Part shown: positions 1,325 to 4,301 of the stretch, one piece after another
Numbering within the stretch: position 1 is the first letter of the stretch
How the letters are laid out: each line of letters starts with the position of its first letter
Made by a program: the position numbers and the translations under genes
Notes under the pieces: generated by a model
Told to the model about the DNA's origin: nothing
The model's database searches: none
What the model saw: only the letters and a program-made list of their open reading frames with translations
IMG/VR virus record: IMGVR_UViG_2667527959_000006
Coordinates: 1-11,176 of that record
Reading direction: 5' to 3' (one strand)
DNA length: 11,176 bases
DNA from: a virus
Taxonomy: Duplodnaviria; Heunggongvirae; Uroviricota; Caudoviricetes

Positions 1325-4301
1325 TATTTAGCTCCTTTGCCACACCTAATAACAGTTCCAGCAATCCGTCACCATTCATCAGTGATGCGGCAGCGGCCTC
1401 TTTGTCATGATACAACTGAAGAGCCATAGAGAATACTTCCGTTGCTGACGTTTTGGAAATAGTCGGTGATTTCTGCCGAATTTTCCCGGTGTTACTTACT
1501 GAGGCTGGCGGGTATACCTTCGCCATATAAATATTACTCAATCGAGATCTGAAGCACCATTCAGGCTTGCCACGCCCACCGATATTAACGAAAGATGGCT
1601 TATCCCCTTCAACATTGGCCTTCAGAAATGACCGGGCTTTCTCTAACAAACCAGGGTTACTGTACTCAAGATGATGACCCAGCTCGTGCCACAGTGCACT
1701 TGCATTTTCATCGTTCAAATTGACAGCAACAACACCATTAAGATTTGCATATGCCCTTCCCTGGTGGTGAACCACCTTTGATAAGGTCGAAATTTTACCG
1801 CCGGTCAGGCGATAAATATCAGCAAGTTCCTTGCGCAGGTCTATCCCACCATTCTGTCCAGCGCGAGCTTCTTCCACTTCTTCCGTGATAAAAGAGTCGG
1901 CCCACTCAAGAGCTTTTTCTTCAGATACGGATGAGTTTGCGATCGCACTGTTCATGGCAGATAACACTTTCTCGTGGACCGAACCCATACTTCGCTGATT
2001 CATTTGCCAGCGTGTCTGCGGGTTATATGAGAATCGCTTAAGTAGTTGGTCAAGCTGCTCAAGTTCTTCTTCACTGACATACTTTTTAGCCTCACCAATA
2101 ATGCCAGGGAGAATATTGCCGTTAGGATTAAACGCTCGCGAAAGGAAGAGTTTCAGCGCCCCTATGCCCTCCGATGCTTCAATATCACCAATAACCCGGT
2201 TAACAATGGCCGCACTCTTCGGATTAGCATCCGCCAACGCTCTGGCTACGATTTGCAGGGACGATACGACCTCACGCTGCATATCAGTCCTGATCTCATC
2301 AATAAACTCTGGCGTTATGCCGTGCTCTTTAAGGATATCCCGGCCTTCCGCCGTTACCCCATCGATATCACCGACATGTTTATTAACACGGCTTTGCAAT
2401 GCCTTAAATGCCTTCAGAATTCCACGGGCATCATCCGCTTTACTAACGGCCTTCCTGAATGCTGGCAAGAAGTCTGAGTTAACCTCATTTTGTTGATCGG
2501 CCCACTGAATGGAGGCTTCTTTCATCTCGTCCAGAGTCAGATCACCCAACGCGGTATGGTCTGTGAATATGAGCGACAACCTCTGAACCATTTCTGCCAA
2601 TGGTGATGCCGAATGCGCCGCGCTAAGGAATGCTTTCACCCTGGTTGGGCGAATGGAAAACCAGTCAATAGCTGGTGGCATATCTCCGTTTTTTATCGCC
2701 TGCGCTATCTCGTCAAAGCCATCGCGCCCAAGGGAGGATGCGTGATTTAACAAGCCGCGAAGTAACGAATTGCTGATACCGAATAATCGGCACCATTTTT
2801 TCACGTCGGCAACAGGCATTCGAACAAAATGCGCAAGCACTTGTACAAGCTGTTCATCCTGGGGATCTGTGCGGGAAAGCAGCCTGATCAGATGAATAAT
2901 GTCTTTGATGCCGGATGCCCGATGTAATAGCAAACTGGTATACGGAGCAACACCGTTGTAACTACCGCCGGAAACGGACTCGAAAAGACCGCCGGATATC
3001 CCTTGCATGCCTTCGTATTCCAGTTCCTGAGACACCTGGCGAAGGATATCCTGTAACGACACATCGCCGCCGCCAAACATATCCCCCAGCGCCTGGCCCT
3101 GGTGCTGTAACTCATCATTGATACGTTGAGCCATCAACTTAAAGGCGGTGGCCATACGCTTCGCGCTACGGTTATTCGCGACGATGAACAACGCGAGTGC
3201 TTTCACTTCCGGGGCCGTTTCGCTGAACATATCCCCCTGAGCAATAACATCGGTAATATGCTGGCCTGACTCCTTCGATTGCCTTACCAGGTCTACCGCA
3301 TCTTTCAATGCCGCCAGCGCCTTTTTATCGAGGCTATCCGCTGTCTCAATGCCATCAACAATAGTTGTCACAGCCTGCTTGTGCGCTTCTCCTGATAAAG
3401 CCTGCATCTGGACAAAATCATTGGCTGCCGCATTAAGCGCCGTCAGAACATTACGCATATCCGGATCAGGTTCTTCTGCAACCATCCTTACCAGGCGCGC
3501 ATCCTTATATGCCTTGGCAAAGATCGCGTTTTGTATACGGTCTACAAGTTGCCGTGTTGGTCGCCCATCTTCCGTTACAAGGCCAGCAGCCTGTGTGGCA
3601 CCAACTTGCGTCATGAATCCGCGAATAAACGCGTCATTACTGCGGCTAAGCAGATCTCCGCTTTCTGACGGGTTAAACAACGCCATCATCGCCGGTGTTA
3701 TGCTGTCGGCATCAACAAAAGCCTTTTCACTGGCTGCCATTTCCTGGAGATCAGAAATATTTGAGTCCTTGGCAAACTGAACACGGTCAACCTTCGTTAA
3801 CCGGCGGCGCACCAGTACCGGAGCCGTCATTGATTCAACCTTTTCAGGCCGTATGCCGAATTCGGTCGCATGTTCAATCAGGTACTCCCGATACCGATCC
3901 GCATTACCGTCCTGATAGGCTTTAATGATCCCCATGGTCCGCCCATTACCTGACTCAACGGCATTGTCCTCACCAATTATTGGCGCGCCATGGCTGGATA
4001 AACCGGAATCGGTAAGCTGGGCAGGACGCAAATCCTTGGATATCTGGTTGACCTGAAGAAGGCTGGATGCGCGGGTCCGGTCGCGCGGCTGAAGTTCCTG
4101 GGGATAGTCTGGATTAATTTTCCCATCCAGAGTATTGGATACCAAAAGAACTGAGGCATCGACGATATCAAACGCTGTTTTTACCTCGTCTCCCTTCGCT
4201 GTCACCACATACGAAACCCGCCCATAATCGGGCAGGTTCTTTAGCAGCTCGATCAGCGTTTCTATGCTGGTGGCCATTACCACCTGATCGCTTAAGCTCA
4301 T
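1314..4301 (-). CDS. ddrB: DdrB-like large dar-operon protein (995 aa) with a C-terminal HExxH motif
   Basis: Uninterrupted 995-codon ORF immediately downstream of the ddrA-like gene, matching the P1 order darA-ddrA-ddrB and the about 108 kDa size I recall. Contains WHELGHHLEY (residues about 871-880, nt 1671-1688). Confidence 0.75.
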   Translation of the reverse strand: MSLSDQVVMATSIETLIELLKNLPDYGRVSYVVTAKGDEVKTAFDIVDASVLLVSNTLDGKINPDYPQELQPRDRTRASSLLQVNQISKDLRPAQLTDSGLSSHGAPIIGEDNAVESGNGRTMGIIKAYQDGNADRYREYLIEHATEFGIRPEKVESMTAPVLVRRRLTKVDRVQFAKDSNISDLQEMAASEKAFVDADSITPAMMALFNPSESGDLLSRSNDAFIRGFMTQVGATQAAGLVTEDGRPTRQLVDRIQNAIFAKAYKDARLVRMVAEEPDPDMRNVLTALNAAANDFVQMQALSGEAHKQAVTTIVDGIETADSLDKKALAALKDAVDLVRQSKESGQHITDVIAQGDMFSETAPEVKALALFIVANNRSAKRMATAFKLMAQRINDELQHQGQALGDMFGGGDVSLQDILRQVSQELEYEGMQGISGGLFESVSGGSYNGVAPYTSLLLHRASGIKDIIHLIRLLSRTDPQDEQLVQVLAHFVRMPVADVKKWCRLFGISNSLLRGLLNHASSLGRDGFDEIAQAIKNGDMPPAIDWFSIRPTRVKAFLSAAHSASPLAEMVQRLSLIFTDHTALGDLTLDEMKEASIQWADQQNEVNSDFLPAFRKAVSKADDARGILKAFKALQSRVNKHVGDIDGVTAEGRDILKEHGITPEFIDEIRTDMQREVVSSLQIVARALADANPKSAAIVNRVIGDIEASEGIGALKLFLSRAFNPNGNILPGIIGEAKKYVSEEELEQLDQLLKRFSYNPQTRWQMNQRSMGSVHEKVLSAMNSAIANSSVSEEKALEWADSFITEEVEEARAGQNGGIDLRKELADIYRLTGGKISTLSKVVHHQGRAYANLNGVVAVNLNDENASALWHELGHHLEYSNPGLLEKARSFLKANVEGDKPSFVNIGGRGKPEWCFRSRLSNIYMAKVYPPASVSNTGKIRQKSPTISKTSATEVFSMALQLYHDKEAAAASLMNGDGLLELLLGVAKELNNAD

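Follow-up and report, generated by a model that had tools for sequence, protein, structure and literature searches.

The C-terminal domain of the P1-type phage protein DdrB is a predicted zincin-fold metallopeptidase with a conserved active site

The window analyzed in this study is an 11,176-nucleotide stretch of a tailed phage genome (positions 1 to 11,176 of the IMG/VR record IMGVR_UViG_2667527959_000006), and the gene of interest is ddrB, which encodes a protein of 995 aa. On the minus strand the window carries lydA, lydB, hdf, darA (639 aa) and ddrA (121 aa), followed in the dar operon by the 995-aa open reading frame (ORF) and, downstream of it, hxr. The same gene order is annotated in P1, JL22 and phi456. 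The DNA of the ORF is 98.4–98.9% identical to 19 P1-like phage records (genus Punavirus) in which the gene is annotated as ddrB, and 982 of the 995 residues are the same as in P1 DdrB, with no differences beyond residue 812. From this full-length match and the order lydA-lydB-hdf-darA-ddrA-ddrB-hxr, the protein is the P1 DdrB ortholog of the Dar system.

On the minus strand, the codons cac gag ctg ggt cat cat encode H872-E873-L-G-H876-H877. A preliminary description of this DNA had placed this HExxH motif about 124 residues from the C-terminus (123 residues follow H872) and had raised the possibility that the C-terminal part of DdrB is a metallopeptidase, with the warning that a single HExxH can occur by chance. 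The warning was well placed. HELGH at residues 872–876 is the sole HExxH in DdrB, the number expected from the composition of the protein is 0.026, and 2.6% of 20,000 composition-matched shuffles contained one. A lone motif is thus only mildly improbable and constitutes weak evidence. A chance motif within a non-enzymatic helical region would agree with this frequency, and also with the lack of any Pfam or NCBIfam model matching the domain.

Conservation of the motif across DdrB homologs, which the preliminary description had proposed as a check, was examined by an exhaustive HMMER search with residues 770–995 as the query against 1.84 billion representative proteins (clusters at 50% identity). 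At E ≤ 1e-3 this search gave 390 relatives, of which 33 reach E ≤ 1e-10. Among the best 150 of the 390 relatives, every significant domain match that spans the site contains HExxH, and the matches without it are either fragments that do not reach the site or non-significant secondary matches. In an alignment of 153 domains covering the active site, with 25–45% identity to P1, H872, E873 and H876 could be read directly from the sequences as invariant (153/153), while H877 is His in 82% of the homologs. R849, E879, E914, Y925, Y930, T954-E955 and S958 are likewise invariant or nearly so (Table 1). Other protein searches, with the single sequence or with the family profile, retrieved few proteins, mostly fragments, and the best 80 matches of a viral-contig scan were all near-identical P1-like contigs, with no distant genomic context. 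The likelihood of a chance motif is virtually nil given the HExxH invariance, the further invariant residues beside it and a high-confidence structure model that resembles zincin folds. We rule out a chance origin on these conservation and fold results, and we do so because HExxH is conserved, not because a single motif is improbable.

The structure of the domain was predicted with AlphaFold2 (AF2) on a 30-sequence alignment, giving a mean predicted local distance difference test (pLDDT) score of 92.2 and a predicted template modeling (pTM) score of 0.89. The computed fold contains two strands, the HExxH helix (868–881), a second helix, a hairpin, a short helix and strand with Y925 and Y930, and then a helix (956–962) that starts right after E955, which is placed at its N-terminus. 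The zincin arrangement of a mixed β-sheet with a substrate-binding edge strand packed on the active-site helix is found in the predicted domain, and residues 872–876 are inside that helix, matching the helical HExxH of MEROPS clan MA. The closest structural neighbors of the model are anthrax lethal factor and the Pro-Pro endopeptidases, so the structure-based search for a zincin fold, also proposed in the preliminary description, came out in favor of one. Foldseek of the domain model against the PDB gave no match, and neither DdrB alone nor the family profile gave a significant match in sequence searches of the PDB. Against predicted viral structures, Foldseek matched uncharacterized phage proteins and proteins labeled as head-morphogenesis, MuF or "large polyvalent protein associated." An AF2 model of full-length DdrB, built on 12 sequences, has a mean pLDDT of 66. 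The ParB domain (about 40–180) and the peptidase domain are confident in this model, the helical region at about 480–700 is moderately confident, and a low-confidence linker precedes the peptidase domain.

The sequences of lethal factor and Escherichia coli MtfA were obtained from public records and each was aligned to the family profile. Both alignments are collinear but weak (pairwise E of 0.0067 and 0.025, respectively). In them HExxH aligns on HExxH, E879 aligns with lethal factor D693 and MtfA D156, and E955 aligns with lethal factor E735 and MtfA E212, which we take to be the third zinc ligands of these enzymes. The aligned Glu is followed by 41 residues in lethal factor and by 40 in DdrB. 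The distance from the second His to E955 has a median of 63 residues (range 58–97) and is 79 in P1. The catalytic Tyr of lethal factor and MtfA is presumably found 7 residues before the third-ligand Glu; Y930 is found 6 residues before the conserved Glu in homologs without the P1-type insert.

As alignments, spacing and conservation line up with lethal factor and MtfA, we infer that H872, H876 and E955 are the likely zinc ligands of DdrB and that E873 would be the general base for water activation. E879 is probably not a ligand itself but belongs to the second shell, where it would orient a His ligand. Y930 is a candidate for the transition-state-stabilizing (oxyanion) Tyr as seen in M34 and M90 peptidases, with Y925 as the alternative, and R849 may be located in the substrate-binding edge. 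The preliminary description had looked for the third ligand among the Glu residues of LEYSNPGLLEKAR. Its idea of a downstream Glu ligand is retained, but E955 is favored over either residue of that segment. E887, the second Glu of the segment, was rejected as it is Glu in only 31 of the 153 sequences, and E879 is held unlikely because its counterpart in lethal factor and MtfA is the Asp at +3.

Table 1. Position of ddrB and of the predicted domains and residues of DdrB within the 11,176-nucleotide window.
Feature	Position (nt)	Strand	Basis or remark
ddrB coding sequence, 995 aa and stop	1314–4301	minus	ORF list, translation, DNA and protein identity
N-terminal DdrB-like ParB/sulfiredoxin-superfamily domain, residues 36–167	3801–4196	minus	Pfam PF18763, E = 5e-39; confident in full-length AF2 model
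Low-confidence linker just upstream of peptidase domain, residues 711–766	2004–2171	minus	pLDDT 34–49 in full-length AF2 model
C-terminal gluzincin-like metallopeptidase domain (predicted), residues 770–995	1317–1994	minus	N-terminal helical part, then β-sheet, active-site helix, insert, glutamate helix
R849, Arg between the two strands before the active-site helix	1755–1757	minus	R in 152/153
HELGHH, HExxH motif	1671–1688	minus	H872 and H876 predicted zinc ligands, E873 predicted general base; in predicted helix 868–881
E879, acidic residue 3 after second His	1665–1667	minus	E in 152/153, D in one
E914, Glu in β-hairpin insert after active-site helix	1560–1562	minus	E in 150/153
Y925 to Y930 (YMAKVY)	1512–1529	minus	Y925 in 153/153, Y930 in 151/153
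T954-E955-V-F-S958, "glutamate helix" motif	1428–1442	minus	E955 in 152/153; T954 is T or S in 153/153

Residues at about 770–995 of DdrB thus very probably form a peptidase domain of zincin fold that is conserved and has a complete predicted catalytic set, an assessment that concerns the fold and the active site and is separate from the choice of substrate. By its sequence and its model, the domain is predicted to be a gluzincin-type peptidase whose active site is intact, and it falls within the metallopeptidases (MPTases) of the phage and plasmid "polyvalent proteins" sensu Iyer et al. (2017). That DdrB may be a metallopeptidase is already known, the prediction having been in the literature since 2004–2017, and the present work adds confirmation and detail. 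The P1 RefSeq record of ddrB reads "possible metallopeptidase," the ddrB of phage JL22 is annotated as "putative metallopeptidase," and Lenart et al. (2013) counted the ddrB family among suspected zincins not yet formally described. Iyer et al. (2017; PMC5512222) named the C-terminal MPTase domain of P1 DdrB, which is the object studied here, and described the same core, in which a β-sheet and the HExxH helix are followed by a Glu helix, along with the fusion partners that we also find (DdrB-ParB, MuF and InPase). In the searchable literature we found no experimental test and no zinc-binding or peptidase data for the DdrB domain.

In scans of DdrB and of its C-terminus with Pfam, NCBIfam and PHROGs, the sole matches were the ParB domain at the N-terminus and PHROGs without annotation. 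PF18818 (MPTase-PolyVal), a Pfam model that we take to be derived from the 2017 work of Iyer and colleagues, had no match in DdrB or its C-terminus at E ≤ 10, nor in 30 family members at E ≤ 1, which places DdrB in a clade for which no curated model exists. These 30 relatives have only scattered sub-threshold matches, among which several zincin families appear (Zincin_1, Reprolysin_2/3/5, ATLF, Peptidase_M91); ATLF (PF07737), for example, is matched by one of the 30 with E = 0.036, below threshold. The DdrB clade has a practically invariant Arg (R849) and a Glu at +3, whereas the phage-type clade of Iyer et al. (2017; PMC5512222) has a conserved His ending strand 2 and an Asp at +3.

The domain co-occurs with DdrB-ParB, MuF and InPase modules. 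About half of the proteins carry it at the C-terminus and the others at an internal position. DdrB-like proteins share the ∼480 N-terminal residues and the C-terminal domain, while the middle part (residues about 480–770, window 1992–2863, minus strand) is replaced or cannot be aligned, which suggests modular exchange between two conserved ends. One distant domain homolog of 414 aa is encoded at locus L085 (8001–9245 of Logan contig ERR12084922_144522) amid many small unannotated ORFs, with no recognizable head genes within 8 kb; the P1 gene is instead located within the dar operon of capsid-internal proteins.

The likeness of the domain to MEROPS family M34 (lethal factor domain IV, PPEP-2 and PPEP-3) is structural only. 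There is no significant sequence similarity to this family, as hhalign against lethal factor domain IV gave a probability of 5.7% and the PDB profile search gave nothing below E = 0.5. The M34 enzymes are moreover secreted toxins or peptidases, unlike the capsid-internal DdrB. MtfA (Mlc titration factor A, MEROPS M90) acts in the cytoplasm of Enterobacteria as a regulator and an aminopeptidase, and its alignment is statistically non-significant (pairwise E of 0.025, probability 2%). ArdC of plasmid R388/pSa has an ArdC-N single-stranded DNA-binding domain as well as a metalloprotease domain at its C-terminus, with the ligands H201, H205 and E229. ArdC and DdrB follow the same layout logic, with a nucleic-acid-related N-terminus and a C-terminal gluzincin, and both help incoming DNA to escape type I restriction. 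The ArdC-N domain is, however, absent from the Pfam matches of DdrB, which has DdrB-ParB at its N-terminus instead.

Some further observations concern the surroundings of the gene. An IS1-family insertion sequence at window positions 158–916 adjoins hxr and is 96.5% identical to the IS1 of phage Rac-SA53. In reference P1, isaB is found between hxr and IS1, and in JL22 and phi456 the position beside hxr is taken by an ompD-like porin gene, so the hxr-distal junction appears to be a site of variable insertion in P1-like phages. The P1 annotation also has iddB ("internal to ddrB") antisense to ddrB. A 143-aa ORF is present in the corresponding region of the window (about 3349–3780, plus strand), far from the HExxH motif.

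What the peptidase would act on is best approached through the reported processing of DdrB. According to Iyer et al. (2017; PMC5512222), DdrB is cut to a 76-kDa polypeptide ahead of packaging, and these authors proposed that the C-terminal MPTase domain autoproteolyses DdrB and that the N-terminal ParB fragment is packaged. We find that residues 1–700 have a mass of 76.4 kDa, and a cut in or near the 711–766 linker would therefore yield the cited product. The linker is thus a candidate site for the processing, and the mass of the N-terminal part fits self-processing without proving it. As the most likely role we tentatively favor processing in cis, in which the domain would cut DdrB itself in the flexible 711–766 stretch during or after head assembly. 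The cut would free an N-terminal fragment of ∼76 kDa with the ParB-like domain, and this fragment may be what accompanies the DNA and assists in loading DarB. The virion proteome assigns DdrB a role in aiding DarB loading. DdrB was detected there at 59.5% coverage, a value that does not separate full-length from truncated protein, and the supplement of Gonzales (2022) holds no peptide-level map for DdrB. The prohead protease Pro trims the capsid protein and DarA, and it could process DdrB in place of the peptidase domain. Cleavage of other co-packaged Dar proteins, or action after ejection, is less likely than a cut in DdrB itself.

The domain could also be mainly a structural or assembly module, used for capsid targeting or for docking of DarB and Ulx, with catalysis dispensable as in ArdC. 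The fixed order in which the Dar proteins enter would fit such a role, and the phage N4 virion RNA polymerase needs a region with a peptidase-like domain for encapsidation, although it is unprocessed (PMC5512222). ArdC E229A retains full function, an example of such a domain not being required for the phenotype that was measured. Nevertheless, the two His and the Glu of HExxH, the +3 acid, two Tyr and the distal Glu are invariant across homologs of 25–45% identity and varied architectures, and this invariance of all catalytic-type residues argues for selection for chemistry and not for the fold alone. We therefore consider a purely structural role rather unlikely, and an assembly role and catalysis are in any case compatible with each other.

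Lower still is the chance of antirestriction by proteolysis, where the domain, after ejection with the DNA, would cleave a host protein such as a subunit of a type I restriction enzyme; we regard this as improbable. As a component of the Dar system DdrB is present in virions, protection against EcoB and EcoK is affected when ddrB is lost, and effector action is one of the possibilities listed by Iyer et al. (2017; PMC5512222). The nearest structural neighbors, lethal factor and the Pro-Pro endopeptidases, are also secreted enzymes with specific targets. However, Dar-minus phages are still restricted in co-infection with Dar-plus phages, and only co-packaged DNA is protected (PMC12707154). Dar thus acts in cis, while destruction of a restriction enzyme should protect in trans. 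Failed DarB loading already explains the ddrB phenotype, and delivery of the peptidase domain would not occur at all should the N-terminal fragment be the 76-kDa form in virions. The cis-only action argues against the destruction of a host enzyme but not against processing of DarB on the DNA. A broader version, in which the peptidase enters the cell and there cuts a specific target, either a host factor or the co-ejected 251-kDa DarB that would be activated on entry, has a slightly better but still small likelihood.

P1 and its transducing particles survive type I restriction with the aid of six proteins carried inside the capsid, and DdrB is one of these. If the peptidase is delivered and cleaves a target in the cell, P1 would owe part of its evasion of type I restriction (and BREX) to a protease brought in by the capsid. 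Several hundred phage "polyvalent" and MuF-type proteins contain the same domain, which is covered by neither a Pfam nor an NCBIfam model, which is why most genome records call such proteins hypothetical. Of the 15 listed among the 19 matched P1-like records, most call the gene hypothetical or DdrB, and one product name says metallopeptidase. A conserved and, as predicted, apparently active protease among the Dar proteins provides a concrete, testable handle on Dar chemistry.
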